Shown in pieces: positions 446 to 45,761 of a DNA stretch of 64,000 nt (positions are counted from its first letter, which is position 1; each line of letters opens with the position of its first letter). The position numbers and the translations under genes were made by a program. This DNA comes from Eledone cirrhosa (Eukaryota): contig OZ024752.1 in NCBI GenBank assembly GCA_964016885.1, forward strand, positions 40,238,001 to 40,302,000, written 5' to 3'. The notes below the pieces were generated by a model that ran no database searches, was not told where the DNA came from, and saw only the letters and a list, made by a program, of their open reading frames with translations.

Positions 446-585
446 CTCCAAAATGAATCATGTTCTTCAACATGTTTGCTAAATTTTGCATCAGTCCAGT
501 GGATATATTGGAATTCTTTTGCAACCAACTCCTCTGTTTCTCTGCTGAACAGGATTCAGCATGTGGAAATTTTCCAGCAGAATTT
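446..585 (-). CDS. Exon 32, module 6B (NSAGKFPHAESCSAEKQRSWL...)
   Basis: 140 bp, phase 2-1; next exon expected beyond the window start. Confidence 0.85.
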
Positions 586-3500
586 CTAGAAGGAAATTGC
601 ATAAGATTAAAAAAAAAATTATGAATATTTTGGATGATGAACGGCCTTCAGGAATGAATTTATGTACTGAGGTTCCACTGTATATCTACGAATACAGTAA
701 GCTATATTTCCTTCTCATTTTAAAATAATTGTTTCTACTTTAGGCACAAGGCCAGCAATTACCCAGTACATTACTGGTACTTTGTTTTATCGACCCCGTA
801 AGGATGAAAGGCAAAGTTAACCTCGGCGGGATTTGAACTCAGACTGCAAAGGGACGTAACTATGCTAGAAAGCATGGCATCCAACCCTCTACCGATACTG
901 CCAATTCACCGCCCTTCTCATTTAAAAATAATTGTTTCTACTTTAGGCACAAGGCCAGCAATTACCCAGTGCATTACTGGTACTTTATTTTATCGACCCC
1001 GTAAGGATGAAAGGCAAAGTCAACCTGGGCGGGATTTGAACTCAGATCGTAAAGGGACGTAACTATGCTGGAAAGCATGGCGTCCGACCCTCTACCGATA
1101 CTGCCAATCCACTAAGCTATGGTTTCAGGGTTATTTGACATGCTATTTCTAGCAGATTGAGTGACCAAGTAGAGGGAGCTACTTGAAACTATCATTGGAA
1201 GCTATTCATTTAGTGAAACTTTCTTTTATTTGAAATGTTAAAATAGAAAAAAGAAAATAAATTATATCTTACATGATTGTCCTTGGACTTATGTCAACTC
1301 TATTGACATCAAGTTGAAGATCACAGGCGAGATATCTTAACAACTTATGTTTAGGAGACAAATTTATTNNNNNNNNNNNNNNNNNNNNNNNNNNNNNNNN
1401 NNNNNNNNNNNNNNNNNNNNNNNNNNNNNNNNNNNNNNNNNNNNNNNNNNNNNNNNNNNNNNNNNNNNNNNNNNNNNNNNNNNNNNNNNNNNNNNNNNNN
1501 NNNNNNNNNNNNNNNNNNNNNNNNNNNNNNNNNNNNNNNNNNNNNNNNNNNNNNNNNNNNNNNNNNNNCAAATTTATTGTATTATTTCCCAGCTCTAGTT
1601 CTTTAAGCCATTTCTCAAATGTGCCACTCATCTGCATAAAAGAATTACATTGCTTTAATTGAGAGAGTGTAAAATTATTTTGTATTAAATGATATTATAA
1701 AGATGAGAATTGTGCCATTTTATTTAATAGTCTATTCCATGAATACTTGAATTCAATTGTCTTCAAATACTTCAGTAATGTAGAAATGCAAGTTGTTATT
1801 GTTTAGCCACTTGGATGAAGCAGAGCAGATCTATAATCAATGTCATTTCAGCTACAATTATTCCATATTTTCGGGCTGTGTAAGCTGAACTAGACTATCT
1901 AATGTGTACTTCTTTTTTAAAGATGATAACTTGTGTAGTTTCAGGGAAATTTGGCTTTTATTTCTAAGATTAAGCAACTAGACACCTCAGATTAAGCAGT
2001 AAAAACTGAATTGTATTTCAGTGTCACTTCAAGTTGTCAACAGTAAAACAATATATCATCATCATTGTCATCATAATTGTTTTTACATCCATTTTTCCAG
2101 GCTTGCATGGGTTGACAGGCCCTTTTCAATACACCATCTCTCCACACATCGTGATCCTTCATCATCTTGACTGTGTTTCAGTGATTTGAGATTACCTCTC
2201 ACCACTTCTCTCCAGGTCTTTCTTGGCCTTCCACTACTGCAGCTTCTTGGCACTTCTTCACTCAGCAATTATCATTCATGTGTGTCACATGTCCATACCA
2301 AATACAATAGACTAATATAATATGGCTAAATGCAAAAAAAGCATTCATACTGTGTCATCCTTTACACAGGGTAACATGCGACATTTTCAGGCCTTTAGGT
2401 AGAGGGACCTGTTTGAAAAATATATTGCAGTCTCTATCCAATTACATGATCAGTATGTGAACACATACTTTACTATAGATCAGTGCTTCTCAAACTATCT
2501 GATGTGGCGGACTGGCATTTTTTATTTCAATATGCCACGTACCGCTAATATTTCGTAGTAATATTAATTTATACCGGAAACGATATATATAATGAATATA
2601 ATAATAGTTGACCATTTTTTTATCTTCTATTTATTTTGTAAACAAATAATACAATATCAAAACATATAAAAAAAGTAATAAAAAAATTCCTCAAATGATT
2701 CCTTAGCATGGCCTGGACACTGGCCGTGTACCGGTAGCTGATGACTCACATACCGGCACCGGTTCGCTGACCACCACTTTGAGTAGCACTGCTATAGAAT
2801 ACATATATGTCAAAAGGAGTAAGAAAAAAAGAAAATGACATTGAGAGATGAAGTTTGACATGAAGAGGTATGATGGCTCAATAGATTCAAGTTGATTCTC
2901 AAACATTTTGCAGTTTCTACTTACATCTCCAAGAGGAATACTGGAAAGAGTTTCAAAGATTTTCCAGTCTTTTAACATTTGAAAAATATTTCCATTGAGT
3001 TGCGCTGAAGAAGTAAAAGAAACATTTAAGATTACGTATGATTTTGTCATAGATCTAAATAAAGTTTGAGTGTTGATGTGTGGATGTGAAATGTTTGTTC
3101 TGAAGTGGTGCAAATTGCAGCAAACAAGACAATGTTTTACAGTATTTAATTGTGTCCTACATTCTTAGTTTATATCTTATCAGGTTCAACTTTGTATTTC
3201 ATATTTCTGAAGTTAAAGTAGGTACCAAATTCATTTTGAGCTGATATTCCACTCTGCTTCACTCTGTTTGTCATGTGAAGGAATGCAATTACTACACTTC
3301 AATAAGTTTATTACTAGTAATTGCAATAATAATAATGGGCTCTGATTTAGGCACAAGGCCAACAATTTTTTAGGGGAAGAGGAAATCCGTTTAAATCGAC
3401 CCCAGTGCATTACTGGTACTTTATTTTATTGATCCCGACCCCATAAAGATGAAAGGCAAAAATAACCTCGGTGGGATTTGAATTCAGAACATAAAGGACG

Positions 3501-6500
3501 TAACCATATGCCACAAAGTATGTTGTCTGAAACTCTACTGATACAGCCAACCTACAGCAACCTCTTGTAATAATAATTGTTTCTACTTTAGGCACAAGGC
3601 CAGCAATTACCCAGTGCATTACTGGTACTTTATTTTATCGACCCCGTAAGGATGAAAGGCAAAGTCAACCTCGGCGGGATTTGAACTCAGATCGTAAAGG
3701 GACGTAACTCTATGCTGGAAAGCATGGCGTCCGACCCTCCACCGATACTGCCAATCCACCGCCCTAATAATAATGATAACGAGGATAATGATGATGAAGA
3801 TCATGATAACAGGATAATGACGATCATAGAGATGGTAATGGTTATAAAAACTTACCAAGTGAAGGTCTCAATGAGAGTAAATAATTGATGAGATTATCAG
3901 CAAGTGTTATGGAACTTGAATTCAAGAACTTTTCTAAATCATTTATGGGTTTTATACATTGTTCAATATGCATCTTCAAATTTTCAACTGTGTTGAGAGA
4001 GCTAAAGAAAATTAAAAGAGAAATTAGCTAAAGTTTATTAGGCACACTCCACAATGGGTCAACATCCACAGGGCAATCCAATGGACAACATCCACTTGCT
4101 TCAATGCCACCTCAATAACACAAATCTATTTTTTATATACTTGTAATTTGTACCTTAGTTTAGATTTATCGATTTGTTGGACACAGATCACAATTTCTTG
4201 AAGAATTTTTGCTTCAGGTCCCCTGCTGACATTCATTACAATAGTTGAGACCATTCTTATCAGATCCTCGATCTAAGAAAATAAATTTAAAAATATTTAC
4301 CTGACAATAAAAGTTGATTCTGGTTTAATTTCAATCATTAACATTGATTAATTAATAATTTAATTATAAAAGCATTTTGTTGACATATTTAAGTAATAAA
4401 AAGATAGATTTGATTATTTCCAATTTCGTTATTCAAGGCACCATTCGCGAACCAATACGTTTTATGTTCGGTAAAGTTGTTCGTGCTGAGAGGTAAACAC
4501 TGCGACGGCTTCAATAGAGTACATGGAGGCCATGGAGTTGGCACAAGGAATGAGGAAGGATTCAGACTTCTAGAATTCTGCGACGCCAATGACATGTCGA
4601 TATGTAACACAAACTTTAAAAAACCCGACAACCACCTGATCACCTATAGATCAGGGGAGCACTCTAGTCAGTTAGATTTTATCCTCATCAGAGGACGTGA
4701 CAGATGGACGGTCGTAAACACAAAAGCCTTCCCTAGTGAGGAATGTACATCCCAACATAGCTTAGTTGTCAGCGACCTCACGGTCAGAACTAGACGAGCC
4801 CTGAAACAGAGGCCAACCTGGAGAAGAAAGATCTGGAAGCTGAAAGTCCCCTCAACCAGTAACAGATTTAAAGATATTTTACTCAACGCCTACGACAGTA
4901 AAGAAGAACAGATAGAGACATTTAACGTAGAAGAGAACTGGGAGTTCCTAAAAAATAACTTACTAGAGGCGACGGATGAGGTTTGTGGCTGGAGTAAGAC
5001 CTCAAGCAGGAGGAGAGTGACTTGGTGGTGGAACAATAAGGTAGATGAAGCAGTCAAGGCCAAGAGACAGGCATGGAAAGAATGGAAGAACGGGGGGAGC
5101 AGGGTACATTACATAGAGACCAAGAGGGAAGCTAGGCGACAAGTATACTTAGCTAGGAGGGAAGCAGAGGATAGAAAATTCAAGCATGTTTTACAACGTG
5201 AGGACCAGAAACAGGAGGTATTCAAGATTGCGAGGCAGTGTGTCAGAGATAGTTGTGATGTCATTGGAGAGAAGTGTATCCGGAATGATAAAGGTGAGCT
5301 TGCCCTCACAAGTGCTGAGAAGAAAGATGCATGGAAGAGTCATTATGATAGATTACTAAATGAGGAGAATGCATGGGAAGAAGAGACCCTACCCCACGTA
5401 GACCCTATAGAGGGACCAGCAGTACAAGTCAGCGGCAGCGTAGTAAGTAAGGCAATCAGAGATATGAAGATAGGGAAGGCAACCGGTCCATCGGGTATAG
5501 CTGCCGAGATGCTGAAGGCATCTGGGTCTGTAGGTCACACTATAACCACACGTATCGTTAACCAGGTAATACTAGAGGGGGCCATACCAAAAGATTGGTG
5601 CAGTAGCATCATTGTCAACTGCTACAAAGGTAAAGGCGATGCACTAGATAGAGGAAACTATAGAGGTATAAAGTTGATGGACCAGGTCATGAAAGTAACA
5701 GAAAGAGTTATAGCACAGCTGATTAGGGACCGGGTGAATATAGACGAGATGCAATTTGGGTTTGTTCCAGGGAAAGGCACCACTGATGCGCTCTTCCTTG
5801 TGAGGCAATTACAGGAAAAGTACCTAGCTAAAAGTAAGCCACTCTACTTGGCATTTGTCGACCTTGAGAAAGCCTTTGACAGAGTTCCACGTGCAGTAAT
5901 CTGGTGGGCTCTTAGAAAACTAGGAGTAGATGAATGGCTTGTGAAAGCGGTACAAGCCATGTATAGGGGAGCAGTCAGCAAAGTTAGGATTGGCAATGAG
6001 TATAGCGAGGAATTTAGCGTACAGGTTGGGGTCCACCAGGGCTCTGTTCTTAGCCCTCTCCTGTTCATCATAGTCCTGCAGGCAATAACGGAGGAGTTTA
6101 AGACCGGATGCCCATGGGAACTCCTGTATGCTGATGACCTCGCACTCATAGCTGAATCTATGGTAGAACTAGAGAATAAATTCCAAACCTGGAAGCAGGG
6201 ACTAGAGAGAAAGGGCCTCAAAGTCAACATGACAAAGACTAAGGTCCTTATAAGTAGACGAGAAAACAGAACCCAGATCCCCTCAGGGAAATGGCCTTGC
6301 TCAGTATGTAGGAAAGGTGTAGGTAGGAACTCCATTCTTTGCCCCAAATGCAAACAATGGGTACACAAGAGATGTAGCGGGATCTCAGGAAGCTTAATTA
6401 AGAATGTAGGATTCACATGCAGCAGCTGTGCTGAAACAGCAAGCAAACAGCCACAGGAAACAAGTACCACCAATCTCTGGGAGGGCCCTGTAGAAACAGT

Positions 6501-8428
6501 AGACAGCTTCTGCTACCTAGGTGACCGAATTAGCAACGGAGGTGGGTGCTCAGAAAGTACAATAACTAGGGTAAGAACGGGATGGAAGAAGTTTAGGGAA
6601 CTACTACCACTGCTAGCTGCAAAAGGCTTCTCCCTCAGAATGAAAGGCAGACTGTATGATGCGTGTATCCGAACAGCGATGTTGCATGGTAGTGAGACCT
6701 GGGCGCTGAAGGTGGAAGACTTACGTAGATTAGAGAGAAACGAAGCCTGCATGCTCCGATGGATGTGTAACAGTAATATACGTGAACGACAAAGCATAAA
6801 TGAATTGAGAGAGAGACTGAGCATAAGAGGAATCAAATGCTGCGTGCAGGAGAGGCGGTTACGCTGGTATGGACATGTGATGCGTATGAAGGATGACAGC
6901 TGCATAAAAAGGTGCAGAGCACTAGAAGTTGATGGAAACCGCGGAGTGGGGAGACCCAAGATGACTTGGGATGAGGTGATAAAAGCCGACCTTACCCAAC
7001 TACACCTCTCAAAGTCAATGACACACGACCGTGACTTCTGGCGTCACGCAGTAATACAGGGTACCCGACCTCCCATGGGTACATGCTGAAGCATATAAAC
7101 AATATGCCCCCCCCCCCACCGCAAGGTGGTCGTGGAGGTGCCACGGCAAAAAAGCACCCAGCCCACACTGTAAAGTGGACGTGTAGGCGCCACGAAAAAG
7201 CACCCAGCACTCACTGTAAATGAGGTTGGTGTTAGGAAGGGCATCCAGCTGTAGAAATCAAGCCAGATCAGTTCCTGTATGAGCAAGGCATGGTCAGCCG
7301 ACCAGACACTGCCCACAACAGGACAACCCGTCTAACCCATGCTAGCGTGGAAGAACGGACGTAAAACGGTGATGATGATGATGATGATGATGAAGTTCCA
7401 CTGTATTTATTTAGAATAAATAGTAAAAGTTAACCCTTTATGGTCCAAGTTCAAATCCCGCCGAGGTTAACTTTGCCTTTCATCCTTACGGGGTCGATAA
7501 AATAAAGCACCAGTAACGTACTGGTCTTGTGCCTATACTAGAAACCATTATTCTCTCGCTAAGAAATCAAGGGAAATAACTCTGACTGTTTCTATAGCAA
7601 TTGTCAGCAGAAATACAGCCTTCACCATTGTTTAATGGCTCTGTGGTAACATGAAGTTGATTGTTACAAACATTTCTATATAGTAAATATAAAAATGTTC
7701 AAAATGAGCAACTGTTATATCATTCTTTGAGTAACAAATTCTTTCTATCTAATAAAAATTAACAAGAAAAATCTTACCTGCGATAATGGTATATTTGACA
7801 TGCCAGGCATCAATAAAGATTCTGGAAAAACACATTGAAATAATCAGCAGAAGTGATTGAAGAGTTAAACTTAGAGAATTAAATGAAAAATTTATTGGGT
7901 ATTTTCCTGACGGTAGAGGAGGTAAAGAAGATTACATTTATTTGTCTAATTGATACTAAAATGTTTTACAAGAAAACTGAAACTTTGTAAAGCTCTTGTA
8001 TTGTGCTGTAAAAAATATAAATATATTTTCTTTCATTCAGACATTGTTTTAATTAGTTAGAGAGAAGGAAAGTTGGAGTAGTATTTCCCTCCTTCTATAT
8101 AGAAAGGGTGATGGATAGACTGACAAACATGGCTCTTATTATAGAATAGATTTCTGAGTACAAAGATACACTCATAAGATCAATGGATACATGCCCACTA
8201 AAATGCCCACTTTATACATGCCCACTAAAATGCCCACTTTATGTATGGGCAGCTATTCCCCAATTATGTAGGCAGAGACTAAGAGAAAGGGTAGATAGAG
8301 ATAATTTAGTTAGTAAGGGAGAGTGTGTTCATGTATACCTGTCTATGTGTGTCTATGTGTGTGTGTGCCTCTATGTCTGTTTCTATATTTATGTCTACAT
8401 TGGTTTAAACGAAGCAGTAACACAGCAG

Positions 8429-8459
<31 letters not shown>

Positions 8460-11400
8460 ACACACACATGATGATCATCATCATATATATATTCAACATC
8501 CATCTTCCATGCTAGCATAGGTAGGAATATATATATATCATCATCATCATTATGTTTACGTCCGCTTTTCCCTGCTTGCAAGGGTGGGACGGGAACTGAT
8601 TCTGGCTTGATTTCTACAGCTGGATGCCCTTCCTAACACCAACCTCATTTACAGTGAGTGCTGGGTGCTTTTTTACCGTGGCACCTCCACGGCCACTTTG
8701 TAGTGGAATGATAGGGATCCCAGTCCCTATCATCTCATTTCTACAGCTGGATGCCCTTCCTAACACCAACCTCATTTACAGTGAGTGCTGGGTGCTTTTT
8801 TACCGTGGCACCTCCACGACTACTTTGCAGTGGAATGATATGGACCCCAGTCCCTATCATCTCATTTCTACAGCTGAATGCCCTTCCTAACACCAACCTC
8901 ATTTACAGTGAGTGCTGGGTGCTTTTTTACCGTGGCACCTCCACGACCACTTTGCAGTGGAATGATATGGACCCCAGTCCCTATCATCTCATTTCTACAG
9001 CTGAATGCCCTTCCTAACACCAACCTCATTTACAGTGAGTGCTGGGTGCTTTTTTACCGTGGCACCTCCACGACCACTTTGCAGTGGAATGATAGGGATC
9101 CCAGTCCCTATCATCTCATTTCTACAGCTGGATGCCCTTCCTAACACCAACCTCATTTACAGTGAGTGCTGGGTGCTTTTTTACCGTGGCACCTCCACGA
9201 CTACTTTGCAGTGGAATGATATGGACCCCAGTCCCTATCATCTCATTTCTACAGCTGAATGCCCTTCCTAACACCAACCTCATTTACAGTGAGTGCTGGG
9301 TGCTTTTTTACCGTGGCACCTCCACGACCACTTTGCAGTGGAATGATATGGACCCCAGTCCCTATCATCTCATTTCTACAGCTGAATGCCCTTCCTAACA
9401 CCAACCTCATTTACAGTGAGTGCTGGGTGCTTTTTTACCGTGGCACCTCCACGACCACTTTGCAGTGGAATGATAGGGATCCCAGTCCCTATCATCTCGT
9501 TTCTACAGCTGGATGCCCTTCCTAACACCAACCTCATTTACAGTGAGTGCTGGGTGCTTTTTTACCGTGGCACCTCCACCACCACTTTGCAGTGGAATGA
9601 TATGGACCCCAGTCCCTATCATCTCATTTCTACAGCTGAGTAAACTGGAGCAATGTGAAATAAAGTGTCTTGCTCAAGGAAACAACACATCACTCGGTCT
9701 GAGAATTGAACTCACAACCTTTTGATTGCAAGGCCAATGCTCTAACCAACTAAGCCATGTGCTTCACAAACAAAATTTGATAGAATAAGAATTAGAGTGG
9801 AATATATACTGGGGACAGACTTACCCAATGCTCATTGACTGACTGAAATCACTCAAAGTATCAGAATAGTTACACTTACCAAGCTTTTGCATTAAAGAAT
9901 TTAACTCTCGATTATTTAGTTCTATGACTGCATGCATTGTAGAATTTATTATTGCTGATAACCATTCTTTCTGATCTTTTGGAGTACATTCCTTTTGTTT
10001 ACTTGTAAAAACATTCCTATTGTGAAAAAAAAGTAGAAGAAAAAAGTAAAAAAAAAAAGAGTAAAAAGAAAAATTCAGTTCATTTATTTATTGCACATGG
10101 CTTAGTGGTTAGAGCATTGGCCTTGCAATCGAAAGGTTGTGAGTTCAATTCTCAGACCGGGTGATGTGTTGTTTCCTTGAGCAAGACACTTTATTTCACA
10201 TTGCTCCAGTTTACTCAGCTGTAGAAAGGAGATGATAGAGACTGGGGTCCCTATCATTCCACAGCAAAGTGGTCGTGGAGGTGCCACGGCAAAAAAGCAC
10301 CCAGCACTCACTGTAAATGAGGTTGGTGTTAGGAAGGGCATTCAGCTGTAGAAATCAAGCCAGCAACAATTGCCGTCCCACCCTTGCAAGCAGGGAAATG
10401 CGGACGTAAAATGAAATGATGAATGAATGATGATTGATGTATTATAAATATGGAAGAAATCTACTATATTCAGACCTAGAGAGGGATGGGCTCTGCTGGA
10501 TTTTAAAATGCCGTAGAAACATTGCATGTCTATCCGGCACTCCTACGACTCCCTCAGGAGTTACGGGACCATCCATCTATTCATATTATAAATGTGAAGA
10601 ATTAATTACAATGCCTATGTCCTAAAAAAACCCCAGCTAATTCTCCTTCAAATCACAGTCTTCTGTCATAAATAGGACTCATATGGTGTCATACCTAGCA
10701 TAAATGATACATCTAGTATACAAATAAAACATGTAGTATACAAATGAAACATGTAGTATTTAAATAAAACCTATTTAAATGAAACATGTAGTATTTAAAT
10801 AAAACCTATTTAAATGAAACATGTAGTATTTAAATAAAACCTATTTAAATGAAACATGTATTTAAATAAAACCTATTTAAATGAAACATGTAGTATTTAA
10901 ATAAAACCTATTTAAATGAAACATGTAGTATTTAAATAAAACCTATTTAAATGAAACATGTAGTATTTAAATAAAACCTATTTAAATGAAACATGTAGTA
11001 TTTAAATAAAACCTATTTAAATGAAACATGTATTTAAATAAAACCTATTTAAATGAAACATGTAGTATTTAAATAAAACCTATTTAAATGAAACATGTAG
11101 TATTTAAATAAAACCTATTTAAATGAAACATGTAGTATTTAAATAAAACCTATTTAAATGAAACATGTAGTATTTAAATAAAACCTATTTAAATGAAACA
11201 TGTAGTATTTAAATAAAACCTATTTAAATGAAACATGTAGTATTTAAATAAAACCTATTTAAATGAAACATGTAGTATTTAAATAAAACCTATTTAAATG
11301 AAACATGTAGTATTTAAATAAAACCTATTTAAATGAAACATGTAGTATTTAAATAAAACCTATTTAAATGAAACATGTAGTATTTAAATAAAACCTATTT

Positions 11401-14400
11401 AAATGAAACATGTAGTATTTAAATAAAACCTATTTAAATGAAACATGTAGTATTTAAATAAAACCTATTTAAACGAAACATGTAGTATTTAAATAAAACC
11501 TATTTAAATGAAACATAGTATTTAAATAAAACCTATTTAAATGAAACATGTAGTATTTAAATAAAACCTATTTAAATGAAACATGTAGTATTTAAATAAA
11601 ACCTATTTAAATGAAACATGTATTTAAATAAAACCTATTTAAATGAAACATGTAGTATTTAAATAAAACCTATTTAAATGAAACATGTAGTATTTAAATA
11701 AAACCTATTTAAATGAAACATGTAGTATTTAAATAAAACCTATTTAAATGAAACATGTAGTATTTAAATAAACCTATTTAAATGAAACATGTAGTATTTA
11801 AATAAAATCTATTTAAATGAAACATGTAGTATTTAAATAAAACCTATTTAAATGAAACATGTAGTACGTAGTACGTATAGTATGAAGCACAAGCCAGTCT
11901 ATTGATTGTTATGATGGCGATGAGGATAGTGATGATGGTGGGGAAGTTGATGATGGTGAAGATGGTCGTGATGATGGTGGGGAAGTTGATGATGGTGATG
12001 ATGGTGATGATGGTAGTGATGATGGTGGGGAAGTTGATGATGGTGATGATGGTAGTGATGATGGTGGGGAAGTTGATGATGGTGATGATGGTGATGATGG
12101 TAGTGATGATGGTGGGGAAGTTGATGATGGTGATGATGGTAGTGATGATGGTGGGGAAGTTGATGATGGTGATGATGGTAGTGATGATGGTGGGGAAGTT
12201 GATGATGGTGATGATGGTGATGATGGTAGTGATGATGGTGGGGAAGTTGATGATGGTGATGATGGTAGTGATGATGGTGGGGAAGTTGATGATGGTGAAG
12301 ATGGTCGTGATGATGGTGGGGAAGTTGATGATGGTGAAGATGGTAGTGATGATGGTGGGGAAGTTGATGATGGTGAAGATGGTAGTGATGATGGTGGGGA
12401 AGTTGATGATGGTGATGATGGTAGTGATGATGGTGGGGAAGTTGATGATGGTGAAGATGGTCGTGATGATGGTGGGGAAGTTGATGATGGTGATGATGGT
12501 AGTGATGATGGTGGGGAAGTTGATGATGGTGAAGATGGTCGTGATGATGGTGGGGAAGTTGATGATGGTGATGATGGTAGTGATGATGGTGGGGAAGTTG
12601 ATGATGGTGAAGATGGTAGTGATGATGGTGGGGAAGTTGATGATGGTGGGGAAGTTGATGATGGTGATGATGGTGAAGATGGTAGTGATGATGGTGGGGA
12701 AGTTGATGATGGTGATGATGGTGAAGATGGTAGTGATGATGGTGGGGAAGTTGATGATGGTGATGATGGTAGTGATGATGGTGGGGAAGTTGATGATGGT
12801 GATGATGGTAGTGATGATGGTAGTGATGATGGTGGGGAAGTTGATGATGGTGATGATGGTAGTGATGATGGTGGGGAAGTTGATGATGGTGAAGATGGTA
12901 GTGATGACGGTGGGGAAGTTGATGATGGTGATGATGGTAGTGATGATGGTGGGGAAGTTGATGATGGTGATGATGGTCGTGATGATGGTGGGGAAGTTGA
13001 TGATGGTGATGATGTTAGTGATGATGGTGGGGAAGTTGATGATGGTGAAGATGGTCGTGATGATGGTGGGGAAGTTGATGATGGTGATGATGGTAGTGAT
13101 GATGGTGGGGAAGTTGATGATGGTGATGATGGTAGTGATGATGGTGGGGAAGTTGATGATGGTGATGATGGTAGTGATGATGGTGGGGAAGTTGATGATG
13201 GTGATGATGGTCGTGATGATGGTGGGGAAGTTGATGATGGTGATGATGTTAGTGATGATGGTGGGGAAGTTGATGATGGTGAAGATGGTCGTGATGATGG
13301 TGGGGAAGTTGATGATGGTGATGATGGTAGTGATGATGCTGGGGAAGTTGATGATGGTGATGATGGTGAAGATGGTAGTGATGATGGTGGGGAAGTTGAT
13401 GATGGTGAAGATGGTCGTGATGATGGTGGGGAAGTTGATGATGGTGATGATGGTAGTGATGATGGTGGGGAAGTTGATGATGGTGATGATGGTAGTGATG
13501 ATGGTGGGGAAGTTGATGATGGTGAAGATGGTAGTGATGATGCTGGGGAAGTTGATGATGGTGAAGATGGTAGTGATGATGGTGGGGAAGTTGATGATGG
13601 TGAAGATGGTCGTGATGATGGTGGGGAAGTTGATGATGGTGATGATGGTAGTGATGATGGTGGGGAAGTTGATGATGGTGATGATGGTAGTGATGATGGT
13701 GGGGAAGTTGATGATGGTGAAGATGGTAGTGATGATGCTGGGGAAGTTGATGATGGTGAAGATGGTAGTGATGATGGTGGGGAAGTTGATGATGGTGATG
13801 ATGGTAGTGATGATGGTGGGGAAGTTGATGATGGTGATGATGGTAGTGATGATGGTGGGGAAGTTGATGATGGTGAAGATGGTAGTGATGATGGTGGGGA
13901 AGTTGATGATGGTGATGATGGTAGTGATGATGGTGGGGAAGTTGATGATGGTGATGATGGTAGTGATGATGGTGGGGAAGTTGATGATGGTGATGATGGT
14001 GATGATGGTGGGGAAGTTGATGATGGTGGGGAAGTTGATGATGGTGATGATGGTAGTGATGATGGTGGGGAAGTTGATGATGGTGGGGAAGTTGATGATG
14101 GTGAAGATGGTAGTGATGATGGTGGGGAAGTTGATGATGGTGAAGATGGTAGTGATGATGGTGGGGAAGTTGATGATGGTGATGATGGTAGTGATGACGG
14201 TGGGGAAGTTGGTGATGGTGATGATGGTAGTGATGATGGTGGGGAAGTTGGTGATGGTGATGATGGTCGTGATGATGGTGGGGAAGTTGATGATGGTGAA
14301 GATGGTAGTGATGATGGTGGGGAAGTTGATGATGGTGATGATGGTGGGGAAGTTGGTGATGGTGATGATGGTCGTGATGATGGTGGGGAAGTTGATGATG

Positions 14401-17400
14401 GTGATGATGTTAGTGATGATGGTGGGGAAGTTGATGATGGTGAAGATGGTAGTGATGATGGTGGGGAAGTTGATGATGGTGATGATGGTGGGGAAGTTGG
14501 TGATGGTGATGATGGTCGTGATGATGGTGGGGAAGTTGATGATGGTGAAGATGGTAGTGATGATGGTTATGATGATGATGGTAGTAACAATGACACTGAT
14601 GAGAGGAATACTTGTAGAGGTTTAAATATGAAATCATAATTTTAAGTAAACCCTTACATTAGAACCATTTCATTAATCTTTGTAATATCAGTAGTGTTTA
14701 TGTGACACAGGATTTTTGTAAGTTCAAGGATTACAGGCAGTCCACCATATGTTTTATTATCATTTATTACATCCATTATTAATTTTTTCAGCATCACATT
14801 TTTCTGAAAGAAATAAGGAAATTGTTGAAAATATATATAAAATATATATACAAAAAAATACACCCCCGTCCCACAACGCCCACCCCATCCACACCACCCC
14901 TTTCAATGTAAAGTTATATTGGTACCACAACATCCAGTCCGAAACAAATGAGGTCGTGTAGGTGTCACGTAAAAAAAACACACACAGTCCACGCTGTAAT
15001 GTGGCCGTGTAGGTAACACGGTAAAAACCTCCCAGTCCATACTGTAAACGTGGTTGGTGTTAGGAAGGGCATCCAGCCATAGAAAACCCGCCAGACAGTC
15101 CACGCTGTAATGTGGCCGTGTAGGTAACATGGTAAAAACCTCCCAGTCCATACTGTAAACGTGGTTGGTGTTAGGAAGGGCATCCAGCCATAGAAAACCT
15201 GCCAGACAGTCCACGCTGTAATGTGGCCGTGTAGGTAACATGGTAAAAACCTCCCAGTCCATACTGTAAACGTGGTTGGTGTTAGGAAGGGCGTCCAGCC
15301 GTAGAAAACCCGCCAGACAGTCCACGCTGTAATGTGGCCGTGTAGGTAACATGGTAAAAACCTCCCAGTCCATACTGTAAACGTGGTTGGTGTTAGGAAG
15401 GGCATCCAGCCGTAGAAAACCCGCCAGACAGTCCACGCTGTAATGTGGCCGTGTAGGTAACATGGTAAAAACCTCCCAGTCCATACTGTAAACGTGGTTG
15501 GTGTTAGGAAGGGCATCCAGCCGTAGAAAACCCGCCAGACAGTCCACGCTGTAATGTGGCCGTGTAGGTAACATGGTAAAAACCTCCCAGTCCATACTGT
15601 AAACGTGGTTGGTGTTAGGAAGGGCATCCAGCCGTAGAAAACCCGCCAGACAGTCCACGCTGTAATGTGGCCGTGTAGGTAACATGGTAAAAACCTCCCA
15701 GTCCATACTGTAAACGTGGTTGGTGTTAGGAAGGGCATCCAGCCATAGAAAACCCGCCAGACAGTCCACGCTGTAATGTGGCCGTGTAGGTAACATGGTA
15801 AAAACCTCCCAGTCCATACTGTAAACGTGGTTGGTGTTAGGAAGGGCATCCAGCCGTAGAAAACCCGCCAGACAGTCCACGCTGTAATGTGGCCGTGTAG
15901 GTAACATGGTAAAAACCTCCCAGTCCATACTGTAAACGTGGTTGGTGTTAGGAAGGGCATCCAGCCATAGAAAACCCGCCAGACAGTCCACGCTGTAATG
16001 TGGCCGTGTAGGTAACACGGTAAAAACCTCCCAGTCCACACTGTAAACGTGGTTGGTGTTAGGAAGGGCATCCAGCCGTAGAAAACCCGCCAGACAGTCC
16101 TATGCGAGCAAGACAACCACTCTTGCCTCAAGTGGGAAAACTCCCGTCCAAACCCATGCAAGCGTGGAAGATGGACGTTAAACGATGATGATGATGATGA
16201 TAATGATATACATGAATGTTGCCAGAGTATTTTAAAGAATATTAATAACATTATCATTTTTTTTGTTTGTTTTTTTATAACACCTGGCAGGTCTTACAAA
16301 TCTGTAGAGTTTCTCATATTGACTTATGTCTTATCTCCCTTTGTTAACAACAGAGGTAGTAGTTCCCCAAATGTTTCCACCCAATTCTTATTTTGGCTAT
16401 TTTACTTTTGGTGCACCTTCAACCACTGCTAATTTGGTCACTTAGGTAACATAAATTTTGTCTCCTTGTTTGCCTGACTATACTGGTTAACAGGGAAAAG
16501 AGATTCTGCACTTAAAGTTTACACTGGGTTTACAAATTGAGCAATTTGGCCAATTCCTTAATAACAGCATGATTCTGTTTATTTTTTCCTGCTTACAAGG
16601 ACTGTAATATTTGCTAAGATTACTCTAAAGCCTTGGAAATTACTACAACAAATCCAACCAAAGTTAATAACTTGATTTTTTTCAGAGCTGGTCTCTTACA
16701 CTATGGTGCTTACTTTAATTATTTCTTAATATAATTCCCTGCATATAATCTGTGTGTTCAGCTCCTTTAGAACACCAAAATATTCTTGTTTAATTAAATA
16801 ACACACACAACCATTAAAAAAAATAAGCTATCGGAACATTTAGAAGATTAAAATTCTTAGAAAATGTAGAAATTTCAAATGCAGAAAATAACTGTAACTA
16901 TATATGATTGTTATAAATAATAGCTTAGAAACAAGGTAAAATACCCCTATAGACAGAAAAATGTGGCCAGAAGCTGCTATGTAGTAACCATTTCTGCTGG
17001 CCACTTTACTCTGTTTAGAGTCTGTAATATTTTTATTTCACATAAACATACATGCACATATCCAATATCTTTTGGAAATCAGATTGTAACTTACTTGGAA
17101 AAACACTTCTTTTTCTAGCAAATTTTTTACAAATGATCGTATAGTTGTTAAGTTCAGTGGAGTTATTTGTTTGATTATTCCTAGATAAACAAAGAAAATT
17201 TGAAAATTTTGCAATGAAAATTTTGCAGAGAGCCAGAATGAATGCTGCAATGCATTCTATCTTACAGTCTTAACAATTCTGTCAATTTGATACTTCTGTG
17301 ATACATGCCAACCCCAAAATACTATAATTTTTTTTCTATCTTATTCATATAGAAAATACATAAAATGTAAAAATAAGTAGCAAGTGAAAATAACAGTTAT

Positions 17401-18770
17401 CACGCTTATAACAATGTATATCATCATTGGAAATTTTAATGTAAAAAACAAAATCTGTGCATTTGTAGATACTCACTCTTAAAAACATCAATTTCTATGC
17501 TATTATTTTTTGCCAACATTTGAATCATATTACTGGTGAAATTAAAGGTTCTCTTCAACCATTGTTTTTGTTTTTGTGCCGGACAGTAGAAATCTTTTTC
17601 TAACGAATCCAAAGCCTTCCTGGAAAAAAAATTTTAAACTAAGAATTTCAACTCTACAATTGACTACTATGATGCATAAATATATACATACATATATATG
17701 TGATATGTGTTTATTTGAGTGTGTATAGATACATACATATATACATATGTATATATGTGCTTTTGTGCATGTGTGTGTGTGTGTGTGTGTGCATAGATAC
17801 ATGCATACATATGTACATACATACATGTACATGTGCTTACATACATACATACATGAAACAATGACAAAGGTGGAAGAAGAGCAATAATGCAATACCAGTT
17901 CTATTCTTAGAGACAAAAATCATTGCTAGCTGCTGAAAGAGAAGGTGAAGAAGTGTACCATGATAACTTGCTAATTGATGTAGAATAATGAAATGTGGGA
18001 TAAGTAGGGACATGTAGTGTGATACCAAAACATTGTAAAGAAGGGAGAGCTCACTGTGCAAATTGAGATGTAGATTTATTGGTGTTCACTGTGTTTATGA
18101 AGCAAATTTTTCAATAATGCAATTATATTTGCATCATATGTTTTAAGAAAAATAGTCAAAAATGTATAAGACAATGTACCATATAAAGTTTTCATCAATT
18201 TTTTCAGTTTCGTCAAGTTCAAGGCCAAGACCACAGGCAAGGAATCCAAGCATTTCATGATCCAGGGGTACAACCTTACTATTATTTCTTATCTTCAAAT
18301 CCTTAAACCATTTGATGAAAAGGGCATCCATCTGAAACACAAGGGAAAACAAAACCCCTCAATAAGGACAAACTAAAACAATGGATGTACAAATGTACTG
18401 AACTTACTGAACTTATTTATGGTTGTAAGTTCAGATTTTAGTGATGCCATTGTGTTGTGCTCCTGAGCAAAACATCTAATTTGCCTTGTAAGATTCTTCA
18501 AGTATTGAAGAAGCTTGAAGCAGTTACAAGCTGAAATTAGCTGAGCTCAAGGTCAAATCTCAGCCTCGATTGGCAGTATTGGTAGAGTGTCGGACACCAT
18601 GCTTCGCGGCATAGAGTTACAGCCCTTTACATTCTAAGTTCAAATCCTGGCGAGCTTAACCTTGCCTTTCATCCTTGCGGGTAGCTAAAATAAAGCACCA
18701 ATAATGAACAGGAGCCGGTTTAATTGACTTTCCCCTCCCCTAAAATTGTTGGCTTTGTGCCTAAAACCAT

Positions 18771-18808
<38 letters not shown>

Positions 18809-21800
18809 TTAGTGGTATTTATTCTGTCTCTTTGCATTCTGAGTTCAGATCCCACTGAGGTTAACTTTGCCTTTCATCCTTTTATGGTCTAGGGCAGTGT
18901 GTGTGTGTATGTATGTATATACATACATATGTACATGTGTATGTGTATCATCATCATCATCTTTTAATGTCTGCTTTGCTTGCTAGTAAGGGTTGGGCAG
19001 ATCTACATAGACCAAGTCAATACTGAAGTGGTTCTACTGACCTCTCTGAGAGTCTGGGGAGGGGGATCTGTATCTTGGTTAGGGGATGAATGGGTAAACA
19101 TCAGTGGAATACACGCCATACTTAAAAATAAGTAATGATTAGCATCAGGAAGTGCATCTAGCCATAGAATATAGCATCAAAAAGCCTTGTCCAATCCATA
19201 TGAGCATGGAAATTTGGCAAATGATTAATAGGAGATAATGAATATCACCAAAACAAATCTTCATTGCTGTTGTCTTCATTATATATTCACTTGTTCTTCA
19301 TTATTATTTCATAATCAAAGGGCGGTGGATTGGCAGTATCAGTAGAGGGTCGGACACCATGCTTTCCAGCATAGTTACGTCCCTTTATGATCTGAGTTCA
19401 AATCCCGCCGAGGTTGACTTTGCCTTTCATCCTTACGGGGTCGATAAAATAAAGTACCAGTAATGCACTGGGTAATTGCTGGCCTTGTGCCTAAAGTAGA
19501 AACAATTATTATTTCATAATTATAATATATATTAATGGGTATGAAAGTAAGTCTTCTAATCACTTATATTTCTCTGTATCTCAGTGAAGTAGATGAGGGA
19601 AGTCAGTATTTTACATTATTGCCTAGTCTGTGGTTTGAAAAAATAATATTTTACCTCACCGAATATAAATGGCGGTATGCAATTTGTTTATTGAAATAAA
19701 TGAAATTTAGGTTTACGCTTGTAGTTGGAAGCTTCTGGAAAACAGCATCAATCGCACCTCCTATTTGTTCTCTTGTTAAATTTCTCAATATGCTTATTTG
19801 GGGTTTTTCTGAAAATAATTTAGAAGAATGGAAATTGGCTGATATTTATTTTTTCTGCATATATAATGTAATACATATCATCATCACCCTTGTTTAACAT
19901 CTGTATTCCCTGCTAGCAAGGGTTGGGCAGATCTATATAGACCAAGTCAGTACTGAAGTGGAGCTACTGACCTCCCAGACAGCTTGGTGGTCTACATCTT
20001 AACACAACTGAAGAGTCCTCCTAGTCATTTGTTTGGCAAACTTTCTACGGCTGGATGCCCTTCCTATCATGGCACCAATATGACCACTTAACAGGGTGGA
20101 CTGGATGTTTGTTTTGTCATAGTACCTGCACAACCATCTTACAGGGTGAATTGGGTGTTTTTCATCCTGGCAACAGTTTCACCACTTAACAGGGTGAACT
20201 GGGTGCTTTTTTGTCATAGCACCAGCATGATAATAATCACCATCTCCATTTGTGGAGAGGATGGCATCTTGCTTCAAATATTCTTCCTCCCAATAAAAAC
20301 TATTCCACCTATGTTATGAAAATGCATAGAAAAATGGCTGAGAAAATAATTTCTTAAATCTGTGATTACTTTTTCTTTTTTTCTCTTTAGTAATGCAACT
20401 TAGGGTTACTATTTTGTTGTATCAAATCTCTAGGTGGTAGCCTGATCAATGAAGTATCGTGTATACTTGAATATTTAACCACAAAATAGATGGTAGAAAG
20501 GAAGGCGCTTATATTTAGGGTCAATATTTTGACAATTTTCACTGACTTCAAATTTTATGAAAATAAGGTTTGGATTGTTGCTCATTTCTCAGGCATTAAA
20601 TAGTGGGGTTGGCTTATATGAGGTTATTGATTTAGTTCAGCAAACTACAGTTTATTCCAAGTTACGTTTTTATTTGTATTATTGACAAAATATATACCTA
20701 TGAAAACACTGATAGACTTTGTGATTCTTTTGAAAATATCTGTAAGACTTTCAGATGAAGAATTGAGAAGACTTCGTAACAAAGCATCTCGATTTTTAGA
20801 ATTACATTTTAAACCACTTTCTGTGATAAGCTGGACAGCAGCCCTAAAAATATATACATGGGTGATTTAAAACCACAAAGAAATCATAATACATCGTACT
20901 TAACAAACTGTGGAATATATAAGTTATCTCTAAATACCTACCTAATTTTAACTGGTTATCTGTTAACTATGACAAACTTTTATTCATTTCTATTCATTAT
21001 AAAAAATTCATAATTTCTATCAATTCTATACTCAGTAACTCAACATGTAAATACTATATGTTCAGTAAAATATATTTTTTATTGTGAAAGATTTTTTTCT
21101 TATTAGAAAAATAAACTTCACTTGGTCATTCCATGAGAGTGTGTTGGTTAGCCTATGAACTTTTCAGCTGACCCTCGTATGTGTTTACATTACAGGATAT
21201 ACATACTCATCATCATCATCATCATCACCATTTTACGTCCGTTCTTCCACGCTAGCATGGGTTAGACGGGTTGTCCTGTTGTGGGCAGTGTCTGGTCGGC
21301 TGACCATGCCTTGCTCATACAGGAACTGATTTGGCTTGATTTCTACAGCTGGATGCCCTTCCTAACACCAACCTCATTTACAGTGAGTGCTGGGTGCTTT
21401 TTCGTGGCGCCTACACGTCCACTTTACAGTGTGGGCTGGGTGCTTTTTTGCTGTGGCACCTCCACGACCACCTTGCAGTGGGGGGTGTGGGGGCATATTG
21501 TCTATATGCTTCAGCTTGTACCCATGGGAGGTCGGGTACTCTGTATTACTGCGTGACGCCAGAGGTCACGGTCGTGTGTCATTGCCTTTGAGAGGTGTAA
21601 TTGGGTAAGGTCGGTGTAAATATATTCATTGATGAATGAACTACTTACTTTATAGTTCTTGCACTAGTTAGATTGTTAGCCATATGTTTGATATCACATA
21701 ATATTGCTACCAGCATCCTTACTTCTGATACATTGACAGAATACTGAATAGTCTTGATCAGTTCAGGTAATATTTTCTCCATCATCACAGCAGACTGAAA

Positions 21801-24800
21801 TATCAAAAAAAAAAAAAAAAAAAAAAAAAAATCAGCATAATGTACAGAACGGTAATCTTAAAAATTAAATAGAAAAAATTAAATAGAAAATAAGAGTGGA
21901 ACAGCAACATCACAACTTACAATTAAGGACAAAATGAAAACACACACACACATAGAACAAACAACCAACCAACAACATGTAAATAAATAAACAAATAGAT
22001 AAATGAACACAAACACACACAGACACCCGGATGTGGTGCATGCGCAAACTGAGCACACAACACACACACAGAAACAAAATGGCGTAGGACAGAAGAAAGG
22101 AAAGGCACAGAAACAAAGAAAGGAATCCCCAGTCACTGAAGAGGTCACAGAGTGTGTGACGAAAGGACTATGACTATATATAAACAACTATCTGGTTGTG
22201 GAACCAACCAACCAACCAACCAACCAGAAATTTATAAGTTTGTAGATTTGTAAATTTATAAATTTATAAATATATAATAAATTGAAGTGAAAGCAACTGG
22301 TGCGTGTGTTTCTTATTGGCAACATGACCCTCCCAAAGTATAACAATATCGGTTTCAACACACGATTTCAGATAAAGAATCTTGCTAAACAAATTCAGAA
22401 ACGGTAATCTTAAACTTAAGATTATACTCACACTTAAATATATATATATCAGAATTAGTAGCTTCCTGAACTTTTTCTATCCTATTCTAACTGTTATGCT
22501 CTCAGAGCAACATCCACCATTACTAATTATATCCTTGGTAGTAGAAGCTATCAACCATTTCTATGAAGCCTTTAAGTAATCATTATTGACAATTGTAAGG
22601 GCGGAGGATTGGCAGTATCGGTAGAGGGTTGGACGCCATGCTTTGACACATAGAGTTACGGTCCTTGCCATTCTGAGTTCAAATCGCGCCGAGGTTAACT
22701 TTGCCTTTCATCCTTACGGGGTCGATAAAATAAAGTACCAGTAATGCACTGGGTAATTGCTGGCCTTGTGCCTAAAGTAGAAACAATTATTGACAATTGT
22801 AATAAAATAAAATCTCACTTACTTGTATCACAGGTATTTGGGAAATCAAATCTGAACTAACATTCTGTAACTGTGACAAAGTAAGATTTTGTATTGTAGT
22901 TTTATTCAATAAACCTGTGCAAAAAGAAAATATATCAAGAATTACTGATGCATTGACATTGATATATTTCAATGTTATATCGTACTAGGGAGTATAGCTA
23001 TAGATTTTTAACCAACACTGTATGATAAGACGTGTGTAAACACCTTATCTTTATATAAAGTATCTTTGTGGGCAGAAAAAGAGGGATCAGTTTAACAAAT
23101 TTCAGTCTTGCGTTAGGATTTCATAAGCAATTAAGTATTCTCTTTACCAGTTAATGAAAGCACTGCTTTAGAGCAGCAAGTGGTAAAGCAGAGGTTTATA
23201 GTTTGTTTACGTAAATAAATAAAGAATTATTATTATTATTTCAGAATAAAAGGGCGATGGATTGGCAGTATCAGTGGAGGGTTGGATGCCATGCTTTCCA
23301 GCATAGTTACGTCCCTTTACGATCTGAGTTCAAATCCCGCCGAGGTTGACTTTGCTTTCATCCTTACGGGGTCGATAAAATAAAGTACCAGTAATGCACT
23401 GGGTAATTGCTGGCCTTGTGCCTAATGTAGAAACAATTATTTCAGAATAACAAAATATATAAAATAAATAACATCCTCAAAAGAAAAAGAAAACACTTAT
23501 TGATCCCCAAACTACTTACGAATCATAGGGCCAAGACTTGTTAGGAATTCTGGTGACCACTGTGTAAGGGTCTTTTCTGCAGAAGTAACAATGTTATTTA
23601 ACCACATTCTCTGTTGTTGAATACTACAGAATTCTACCTCACCAATGGCTTCAATTGCCTCTCTAAAAGATAAATGTTTTGCAATGAGATGATTAAAATA
23701 ACCATTTATTAATTTCACCTCAACATAGAGATTTGCATTTGTATGAGTTAATAAAATGTTGAGTAATAAGATTGAACGTTTAAAGATAGCAACAAACTCT
23801 CACCTCACTGTAAATATGAGGTCAGACAAATCCTAACTGTAAACTACCGCAGCACATTGTGCATATTGAGTTTTATCATTAGGTTGCAGTTGGATTACCT
23901 GGGCATAGCTTGAAGAGAAATTGGCTTCATCAGGCCAAATTTATTTAGAAACACTATATGGACTGGGAGCGCTTTGTTGTGACAGCAACACAACCACTTA
24001 ACTGTGTGGAGTGGGCACTTTTTGTCATGTCACCAATAGAAAAATTGTAATAAAAACAACAAAAATAACAATGACAGAAAGTTAATAAAGGACATACATG
24101 ACTAGTTTAGGACTGAGTTTTGCCAGACTTCTTTCATCTATACCACATGCTAGCTTTCCAAGCAAATGAATATGGTAAAGTGTTATGTTTGAGATATTTC
24201 CTGACATGGCAGTTCTTAGCCAACTTTCAAATAAGATGTTCAACTGAAATATAAAATAATACAAATTATGAGGATAATTCTCTAGTCATATTAATCTTTA
24301 TAGAATGTATAAATTTTTAAAAGTTTACTATGGTACATTTTTGACAAGTGTGGTTAAATATTTATTTATCAGCAAATTTAAGTGCAGATATAGCCATGTA
24401 GTTAAAAGGATCCCCATTATAATTGTTTCTACTTTAGGCACAAGGCCAGCAATTACCCAGTGCATTACTGGTACTTTATTTTATCGACCCTGTAAGGATG
24501 AAAGGCAAAGTTAACCTCGGCGGGATTTGAACTCAGATCGTAAAGGATCCCCATTATAATTGTTTCTACTTTAGGCACAAGGCCAGCAATTACCCAGTGC
24601 ATTACTGGTACTTTATTTTATCGACCCCGTAAGGATGAAAGGCAAAGTTAACCTCGGCGGGATTTGAACTCAGATCGTAAAGGATCCCCATTATAATTGT
24701 TTCTACTTTAGGCACAAGGCCAGCAATTACCCAGTGCATTACTGGTACTTTATTTTATCGACCCCGTAAGGATGAAAGGCAAAGTTAACCTCGGCGGGAT

Positions 24801-30800: not shown

Positions 30801-30965
30801 AAGGGAGGGACGGCAACTGATTCTGGCTTGATTTCTACAGCTGGATGCCCTTCCTAACACCAACCTCATTTACAATGAGTGGTGGGTGCTTTTTTGCCGT
30901 GGCACCTCCATGACCACTTTGCTGTGGAATGATATGGACCCCAGTCCCTATCATCTCATTTCTAC

Positions 30966-31021
<56 letters not shown>

Positions 31022-36703: not shown

Positions 36704-36735
<32 letters not shown>

Positions 36736-41424: not shown

Positions 41425-41463
<39 letters not shown>

Positions 41464-44400: not shown

Positions 44401-45125
44401 ATTGTTTCTACTTTTGGCACAAGGCCAGCAACTACTCAGTGTATTACTGGTACTTTATTTTATCGACCCCATAAGGATGAAAGGCAAAGTTAACCTCGGC
44501 GAGATTTGAACTCAGATCATAAAGGGCGGTAACTCTTTCTGCAAAGCATGGTAGTCGAGCCTCTACCGATACCAGAAATAATAATAAAACACACTCACTG
44601 TTTGGTTTGGGTTGGTTTTCGCTTCTGTGTCTTTTATATCTCCATAGTTAATTTATCTGTCAATCTATGTTTATCATTGATTGACCAACGATTAAAAACC
44701 AAACAGTGAGTGTGTTTTATTATTATTTCTGGCAATATTATAACAATATGACCCTCCCCAAAATATAACAATATATATATATATATATGGAGGCACATGG
44801 CTTAGTGGTTAGAGCATTGGCCTTGCAATCGAAAGGTTGTGAGTTCAATTCTCAGACCGGGTGATGTGTTGTTTCCTTGAGCAAGACACTTTATTTCACA
44901 TTGCTCCAGTTTACTCAGCTGTAGAAATGAGATGATTGGGACTGGGGTCCCTATCATTCCACTGCAAAGTGGTCGTGGAGGTGCCACGGCAAAAAAGCAC
45001 CCAGCACTCACTGTAAATGAGGTTGGTGTTAGAAAGGGCATCCAGCTGTAGAAATCAAGCCAGAATCAGTTCCCGTCCCACCCTTGCAAGCAGGGAAAAG
45101 CGGACGTAAAATGATGATGATGATA

Positions 45126-45160
<35 letters not shown>

Positions 45161-45730
45161 GTGTGTGTGTAATAAATAATTGAGACAGTTTTATTCGTAC
45201 ATTTTCATTTTATTCTAATTCCATTATATGTATTTCAAAGATGCAAAGGTAGTTATATAATTGTTTCTACGTTAGGCACAAGGCCAGCAATTAACCAGTG
45301 CATTACTGGTACTTTATTTTAGTTATATAATAACCACTCAGCACATTTTCTTCAGATGAATCGAGATGAGTTTTTCTATCCATTGATATGCTACTGGTTT
45401 AACGTGTTGTTAATATCGCTGTCCATATATATAAATATATACACCCGCCCCTCCTCTCTCTCTCACACACACACACACACACTATATATATATAATATAT
45501 ATATAATATATATATAATATATATAATATATATTATATATATATTATATATATATAATATATATATAATATATATATAATATATATAATATATATTATAT
45601 ATATATATAATATATATATAATATATATAATATATATTATATATATATAATATATATTATATATATATATATTATATATATATTATATATATATATTATA
45701 TATATATATATTATATTATATATATTATAT

Positions 45731-45761
<31 letters not shown>

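Follow-up and report, generated by a model that had tools for sequence, protein, structure and literature searches.

The window analysed here, 64,000 nucleotides of the Eledone cirrhosa contig OZ024752.1 (positions 40,238,001 to 40,302,000, forward strand), is repeat-rich animal DNA with one gene on the minus strand, and it raises the question of why 17 exons of that gene recur in a fixed order of three, six times over. We refer to the three exons as A, B and C and to each recurring set as a module, numbered 1 to 6 along the gene. The reading that we favor, with moderate confidence, is that the 17 exons represent six copies of one unit, five of them extra copies of the unit that closes an otoancorin-like half, made by tandem duplication in frame, which would extend a helical solenoid as a glycosylated spacer. 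The observations beneath it are the exon chain, its orthology to Octopus genes, a match to a known family, an architecture of two halves, and the pairing of modules 3 and 6.

The gene model, built by a splice-site scan and assembled by hand, runs from an ATG at 51760 down to exon 6B at 446 and comprises 32 coding exons, which together keep 1400 codons in open frame (Table 1); the second half and the 3' end of the gene, the latter outside the window, are read from Octopus orthologues only. All 17 module exons have an AG acceptor, a GT donor, and an open frame, and their phases repeat 0-2-1 six times. The chance that 15 further introns repeat the first three phases is ~4e-8, given background phase frequencies. 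Exactly one cysteine is encoded in each A and B exon (12/12), and none in the C exons (0/5). The exon sizes, the phases, and the single aligned cysteine per A and B exon claimed by the sequence-only reading were all borne out. The same reading had placed an exon 6C beyond the window edge; such an exon appears not to exist in the gene, because all three orthologues run from exon 6B straight into an acidic linker rich in Asp, Lys, and Gly, followed by the second half. Exon 6A is interrupted by a 200-N gap (1369-1568), an assembly artefact whose flanks overlap by 10 bases. It is 149 bp long only if the flanks are merged on this overlap, and we accept this length because of the overlap and because the merged exon aligns to O. 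bimaculoides without gaps (29/50 identical). Two candidates were discarded by reference to the Octopus orthologues: a 149-bp form of exon 2C using an alternative donor, where the orthologues fit 92 bp, and an open frame at 23848-24017, to which they have no counterpart.

The orthologues came from two kinds of search. A profile of the six A exons against 1.84 billion proteins found three, with O. bimaculoides LOC106874393 (P0001) at E 1.8e-14; P0002 and P0003 from this search were dropped as low-complexity repeats. A region search added O. sinensis LOC115212334 (P0010) and a hypothetical protein of O. vulgaris (P0011). Searches with the module region and the C-terminal region gave only three Octopus proteins; they were word-based and do not imply that the architecture is restricted to octopods. 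A word search with exon u14 for longer proteins gave 0 matches among 21 candidates. The three Octopus proteins, annotated only as uncharacterized, are direct orthologues with the same exon-level order and about 50% identity. The E. cirrhosa model is 42-55% identical to P0010 by region, all 17 module exons align to P0010, and identity per exon across the three orthologues is 38-77%.

Which family does the gene belong to? The Pfam entry PF21058 (Stereocilin) matches P0001 at residues 866-1026, covering module 1, with E 1.2e-14, above the curated cut-off. The same entry is found by hmmscan in the orthologue P0006 (E 1e-15) and is precomputed for all three Octopus orthologues. The top Atlas clusters for P0006 are Otoancorin, at 0.92 and 0.91, and Foldseek places mesothelin structures at ranks 5, 6, 8, 13, 15, and 43 (E 6e-4). 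Judged by sequence, the gene belongs to the mesothelin/otoancorin/stereocilin superfamily, and the initial guess of an OTOA/STRC relative is supported by all three kinds of match. Some results weigh on the other side: hmmscan gave no PF21058 match in P0010 or P0011, and Pfam run on 23 single exons of the window gave nothing significant and no PF21058. A search of the PDB by sequence gave no meaningful match.

The internal architecture points to the source of the repeated unit. The C-terminal half of P0010 can be aligned to residues 167-823 of the window model (21%, 692 columns, E 5e-35), with a local score of 415 against a maximum of 75 in 100 shuffles; the protein is therefore made of two otoancorin-like halves of ~660 aa each. 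Module 1 closes the first half, and at the end of the second stand a paralogous unit, here called Z, and a hydrophobic tail; module 1 matches unit Z with an hhalign probability of 94%. On this homology, module 1 is simply the unit with which the first half ends, and modules 2-6, which together with the acidic linker lie between the two halves, are extra copies. This replaces the earlier proposal that module 1 derives from a triplication of unknown origin. In the alignment, the W and LG motifs are conserved in module 1 and Z and lost in modules 2-6. Every module has one Cys pair, and two pairs in P0010 are 625/654 and 763/791. A furin motif, at which cleavage would occur, precedes the mesothelin-like part in each half and is kept in the orthologues; in the first half it stands at the same place in P0010, P0001, and P0011. 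Both P0010 and P0001 end in a hydrophobic tail that resembles a glycosylphosphatidylinositol (GPI) signal and may act as one. Modules 1-6 carry ~21 N-glycosylation sequons. Between O. bimaculoides and O. sinensis, modules 1-6 are 73-89% identical and unit Z is 96% identical. Unit Z (P0010 2207-2333) is the most conserved part measured, which points to the membrane-proximal mesothelin-like unit as the constrained one.

By sequence, the modules are related beyond chance, as had been claimed: 7 of the 15 module pairs were never reached by any of 300 shuffles. Scores within the window are 127 for pair 3-6 (z 20.6), 92 for 1-3, 91 for 1-6, 73 for 1-4, 66 for 2-4, 64 for 1-2, 54 for 3-4, and 39 for 2-5. 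A similarity with period three, as first described, is strong at pair 3-6 alone (hhalign probability 98%): pair 2-5 is not significant (reached by 23/300 shuffles; hhalign 2.7%), and module 1 resembles 3 and 6 more than it does 4. In hhalign, module 1 is close to nearly every module and module 5 to none. At the DNA level, 3-6 is the sole pair with significant similarity (z 11.5); the introns show no such signal. A self-blastn of the window gave no match touching any exon, and blastp of P0010 against itself found no internal repeat; the module homology needed an exon-anchored comparison. The motifs listed for the module pairs are present as stated (LNSSS..L.D in 2 and 5; C....Q..WL..I..S in 1 and 4; LAC.L.[LFI] and C...KQ..WL in 3 and 6), but the exact 1-4 motif is found only in the window species, and the 2-5 motif, in the looser form LNS[ST], extends to module 4 across species. 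Likewise, exons 2B and 5B are both 146 bp, as noted before, but they reach this size differently, with Cys at +12/36 and +14/34, respectively.

How the six modules arose was addressed with trees from eight alignments of 24 module sequences. Modules 3 and 6 group in 8/8 trees with ultrafast bootstrap (UFBoot) values of 85-98, and modules 2, 4, and 5 group in 8/8 trees with weak support (UFBoot 66-80). By contrast, neither of the pairs 1-4 and 2-5 appears in any tree (0/8), so that only the last of the three predicted pairs, 1-4, 2-5, and 3-6, is recovered. All 945 topologies were then scored on two alignments, from which the O. vulgaris rows were left out as near-duplicates. The best tree with all three predicted pairs ranks 58/945 in both (log-likelihood deficits of 7.3 and 6.6), and its 1-4 branch fits to zero length. 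Without module 5, the pair (2,4) is recovered at 78 and 85%.

We consider the likeliest history to be duplication of a six-exon block, [2,3], plus one single-module copy, which is a valid tandem order. Module 1 would have been copied once and that copy doubled; the pair [2,3] would then have been duplicated as a block to give [x,6], after which a doubling of x produced 4 and 5, and the final C exon disappeared. All of these duplications would precede the split of the E. cirrhosa lineage from Octopus. The sequence-only reading had instead proposed that modules 1-2-3 formed first and that a nine-exon block was copied into 4-5-6, with 6C lost later. Growth by duplication of three-exon modules and the 3-6 pair survive from that proposal, which is not the best-fitting history and whose 1-4 pair is disfavored; as a whole it is possible, and we rate it as distinctly less probable than not. 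For it speak the sister pair 3-6, three positions apart, and the identical length and Cys offsets of exons 1A and 4A; on this view, modules 2, 4, and 5 would have diverged so fast that the 1-4 relationship is masked. Trees with 2-5 and 3-6 and without 1-4 rank 6 and 3. The absence of 1-4 from all eight trees, its zero-length branch, the rank of 58, and Kishino-Hasegawa (KH) values of 0.05 and 0.06 argue against it, and features common to 1 and 4 are best seen as ancestral, because modules 3 and 6 or unit Z have them as well. In simulations under the nine-exon tree, the observed gap of 7.3 was reached in 0/70 replicates with 9 rival trees and in 0/20 with 102 rival trees.

Several results count against the six-exon history. 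The order within (2,4,5) is split 4 to 4 between (4,5) and (2,4). The approximately unbiased (AU) test does not reject the 1-4/2-5/3-6 tree (p 0.09 and 0.17), and 450 and 474 of the 945 trees pass it, which leaves the history weakly resolved. The simulation test is liberal, ignoring gaps and composition shifts, and rejects too easily. The best raw hhalign partners among modules 1-3 are 4 to 1, 5 to 2, and 6 to 3, as a nine-exon block would have it, with module 4 at 82% to module 1 versus 13% to module 2, and module 5 below 3% against all others.

As an exon duplication, the repeat is of a common type. Exon-shuffling theory describes how phase-symmetric sets of exons are copied in tandem in genes for extracellular proteins. 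The octopod case shares with it a frame-neutral, multi-exon cassette arranged in tandem, with introns that have diverged beyond recognition. It differs from class 1-1 domain duplication in that the cassette consists of three exons with internal phases 2 and 1 and cuts through a predicted solenoid instead of framing a free-standing domain. As to mechanism, the A-B-C unit starts and ends in phase 0 and the C-A-B register starts and ends in phase 1; because both registers are phase-symmetric, three exons can be added or removed in frame, and unequal recombination within introns would add or drop them without a frame shift.

Differences among the orthologue models follow these two registers. All six modules are present in O. 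sinensis P0010; the phase 1-1 cassette 4C-5A-5B is missing from 7/7 O. bimaculoides models, which do not vary in modules, and the phase 0-0 cassette 2A-2B-2C is missing from the O. vulgaris model P0011. Module 5 as a false exon set, suggested by its absence from O. bimaculoides, was rejected, as it is present in O. sinensis, O. vulgaris, and run X4. This run, which is not on record as RNA, contains a 4534-nt cDNA-like contig in which exon 5B (3856-4001) is matched edge to edge with 0 differences at record positions 3930-4075; the comparison covers this exon-exact piece and the bin depths. Exon 5B starts at position 3687 of the coding sequence, and the offset leaves 243 nt before the modelled ATG. 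Because this offset fits a plausible 5' untranslated region (UTR), the contig is consistent with inclusion of all exons. Bin depths in X4 were 7.5 versus 7.4 expected for the 44 bp of exon 4C and 23 versus 19.9 expected for exon 5A.

An alternative account of the same differences is that the cassettes are spliced alternatively, so that one animal would make rods of several lengths and the Octopus models would differ as isoforms and not by genomic loss. The exact three-exon skips in two registers would fit, as would the weak donors at 2B, 2C, and 3A and the fact that O. vulgaris and O. sinensis are 97-100% identical, yet have models that differ by module 2. Nonetheless, the seven O. bimaculoides isoform models all lack the same cassette, X4 fits inclusion of every exon, and the O. 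vulgaris model could just as well result from an error of gene prediction. We regard regulated splicing as quite unlikely.

What would the extra modules do? The likeliest role is that of a glycosylated spacer in an adhesion protein, because the modules are predicted to be helical, carry the sequons counted above, are less conserved than Z, and tolerate cassette loss in the gene models. Lengthening of a rod-like tether, as first suggested, is plausible. According to the structural account of PMC10035497, mesothelin forms a solenoid of mixed ARM/HEAT type in which C302/C326 and C442/C468 are disulfides, and each A/B Cys pair of the octopod protein would form a disulfide like C442/C468. The ~575 extra residues would fix how far the putatively GPI-anchored second half lies from a matrix-binding, mesothelin-like head at the N-terminus. 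An AlphaFold model of P0010 618-1433 is all-helical, with predicted local distance difference test (pLDDT) values mostly of 60-78 over residues 1-110 and 160-220. In VIA, model residues 1-62 align with the first (N-terminal) domain of mesothelin (Z 6.1, root-mean-square deviation 2.2, 56 aligned), and residues 1-196 align with mesothelin 303-507, the mesothelin Z values being 5.7-6.1. These results also hold points that weaken the spacer interpretation: the mean pLDDT of the model is 49.7, mostly below 50 over modules 2-6, so that rod and disulfides rest on prediction, and Z values of 5.7-6.1 are reached by unrelated helical proteins too. The main objection comes from the furin motifs, which flank the module array on both sides: double cleavage could leave the array no longer covalently tied to the anchor.

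This objection leads to a different role, in which the array would be no tether at all. As a putative furin-released middle piece of ~1500 aa, its six diverged mesothelin-like domains would bind glycoproteins as a multivalent component of a matrix or gamete coat. The furin consensus precedes both mesothelin-like parts and is conserved in orthologues. In the account of PMC2628672, furin cleavage frees soluble MPF from human mesothelin, and the superfamily is proposed to consist of superhelical lectins. Botryllus otoancorin is expressed in testis according to PMC4523013, which by analogy may keep a reproductive role open. Fast protein evolution, with about 50% identity between octopods, would also suit such a component. 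The loss of the W and LG motifs in modules 2-6, however, fits relaxed constraint as well as it fits new binding sites. We think a released component unlikely, and the spacer reading is retained.

The spacer reading can be extended to a doubled, twice furin-processed otoancorin in which a disulfide-stapled segment of the ancient mesothelin fold, cut at introns shared with human STRC, varies rod length by three-exon cassettes between species or isoforms. This bolder form is doubtful at present. If true, the number of copies could determine how far a link from hair cell to cupula, or one in a gamete coat, extends, and the cassette would mark the real modular unit from which the mesothelin solenoid is built.

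Comparison with characterized relatives sets out what is shared and what is not. Otoancorin (OTOA) and stereocilin (STRC) are anchoring proteins of the human inner ear, where they attach acellular gel to the sensory epithelium. The octopod protein resembles them, as described by Sathyanarayana et al. 2009 (PMC2628672) and in PF21058, in its predicted signal peptide, all-helical prediction, the GPI-like hydrophobic C-terminus of its orthologues, and the Stereocilin match over module 1; it differs in having two halves, five extra module copies, an acidic linker, and about 2400 aa. An inner-ear role cannot be assumed for it. The human mesothelin precursor consists of MPF, a furin site, and GPI-anchored mesothelin (structure in PMC10035497). 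Similarly, the octopod furin motif stands immediately before a helical region, the model of which can be aligned to mature mesothelin from residue 303 onward, and two Cys pairs follow in like order, with spacings of 29 and 28 versus 24 and 26 in mesothelin. Mesothelin, however, is one unit of about 300 aa, whereas the octopod protein has the second Cys-pair unit six times and the whole precursor-like layout twice.

The intron pattern may reach further back. The internal phases of the human STRC exons are presumably 2 and 1; the literature searched did not show them, nor did it confirm the internal exon boundaries that we assume for STRC, OTOA, and MSLN. Mapping of STRC to module 1 was by residue spacing and not by alignment. 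Among the variants listed in PMC6295269, PMC12722244, PMC8755823, and PMC4302246, the STRC donors c.4701 (+1) and c.5091 (+4), both phase 0, enclose exons 25-27, or 390 nt; module 1 measures 381 nt and likewise has phase 0 at both outer ends. These sources also place an STRC exon boundary between c.4519 and c.4549. STRC C1491 and G1518 are 27 residues apart, as are octopod C623 and G650, and in either gene the Gly motif comes shortly after an exon boundary. The agreement suggests, if confirmed, that the intron pattern of the module is older than the mollusc-vertebrate split.

The superfamily and the tandem duplication of frame-neutral exon sets were already known. New, as far as the literature searches reached, are the two otoancorin-like halves with five extra terminal-unit copies between them and the apparent gain or loss of whole cassettes among octopods. 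Among the papers listed by searches on otoancorin with repeats, with cephalopods or molluscs, and with invertebrate evolution, none describes this architecture, an absence that is weakly tested. If confirmed, the gene tells us which stretch of ~127 residues in the mesothelin/stereocilin solenoid tolerates repetition or removal, a matter relevant to the design of shortened STRC constructs, and it supplies a named candidate for attaching matrix in the statocysts or gonads of cephalopods.

Table 1. Coding features of the Eledone cirrhosa gene within the window (all positions in window coordinates; n/m, identical residues)
Feature	Position	Strand	Length (bp)	Phases	Evidence
First coding exon, ATG and predicted signal peptide	51673..51760	-		donor phase 1	open frame; 16/29 identical to O. 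sinensis P0010
Twelve exons u2-u13, N-terminal and MPF-like part of first otoancorin-like half	28993..51042	-			splice sites, open frame
Furin consensus R-T-K-R, aa 578-581, directly before mesothelin-like part	28994..29005	-			RX[KR]R scan; putative cleavage
Exon u14, start of mature-mesothelin-like region, two Cys	26965..27161	-	197	1-0	splice sites; P0010 match
Exon u15, putative counterpart of STRC exon 24	25675..25827	-	153	0-0	splice sites; C623-G650 spacing equals STRC C1491-G1518
Exon 1A	24098..24243	-	146	0-2	24/49 to P0010; orthologous region within Pfam Stereocilin match
Exon 1B	23520..23662	-	143	2-1	22/47 to P0010
Exon 1C, end of first otoancorin-like half	22823..22914	-	92	1-0	24/31 to P0010; half-to-half alignment stops at aa 823
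Exon 2A	21649..21794	-	146	0-2	22/41 to P0010
Exon 2B, weak GTATAT donor	20698..20843	-	146	2-1	25/48 to P0010, alignment continuous across boundary
Exon 2C	19717..19808	-	92	1-0	14/31 to P0010
Exon 3A	18180..18331	-	152	0-2	24/50 to P0010; paralogue of 6A, z 13.7
Exon 3B	17477..17619	-	143	2-1	24/47 to P0010; paralogue of 6B, z 9.8
Exon 3C	17095..17180	-	86	1-0	8/29 to P0010, 11/29 to P0001
Exon 4A	14658..14803	-	146	0-2	23/49 to P0010
Exon 4B	9880..10016	-	137	2-1	20/45 to P0010
Exon 4C, shortened (24 aa in O. sinensis)	7778..7821	-	44	1-0	9/15 to P0010
Exon 5A	4154..4272	-	119	0-2	15/40 to P0010
Exon 5B	3856..4001	-	146	2-1	21/48 to P0010
Exon 5C	2925..3004	-	80	1-0	12/25 to P0010
Exon 6A	1273..1631	-	149 after gap closure	0-2	flank overlap; O. 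bimaculoides alignment
Exon 6B, last module exon	446..585	-	140	2-1	23/46 to P0010

Within the first half, regions of u2-u13 are 42% and 54% identical to O. sinensis P0010. The hydropathy of the window model is highest at residues 2-11, within a hydrophobic stretch at residues 2-29 that reads as a signal peptide by this measure. On the same strand, 57341-57410 has a strong donor and is probably a first exon without coding sequence, and 51761-51938 is probably the untranslated 5' portion of the exon with the signal peptide; together they agree in length with the leader of 243 nt in the X4 contig. The O. bimaculoides models P0001, P0004, and P0009 contain, at residues ~215-400, an Arg-rich tandem repeat of ~19-32 aa whose copy number varies from one isoform model to another; O. 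sinensis has a much shorter version, and the window model lacks it.

The intron between 4C and 5A contains, at 4414-7089 on the plus strand, an unbroken 891-codon frame with a reverse transcriptase (RVT_1, E 7e-32) and a PHD finger, i.e., a long interspersed nuclear element (LINE), of which a second copy of 508 codons lies at 34081-35607. An open frame of 200 codons at 52986-53588 (plus strand) has no Pfam match, and degraded stretches at ~55200-56700 (plus strand) appear by eye to resemble a Helitron helicase. In the intron between 4A and 4B, 11911-14567 is a 39-bp satellite of 68 copies that stays open for >880 codons in four frames (Asp/Gly-rich on the plus strand) and is most likely non-coding. 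Near-identical tandem arrays occupy 8610-9639 (127 bp x 8), 14984-16100 (111 bp x 10), and 24405-25108 (137 bp x 5); all three consist of fragments of the short dispersed repeats with which the introns are filled, and they reflect recent local amplification.

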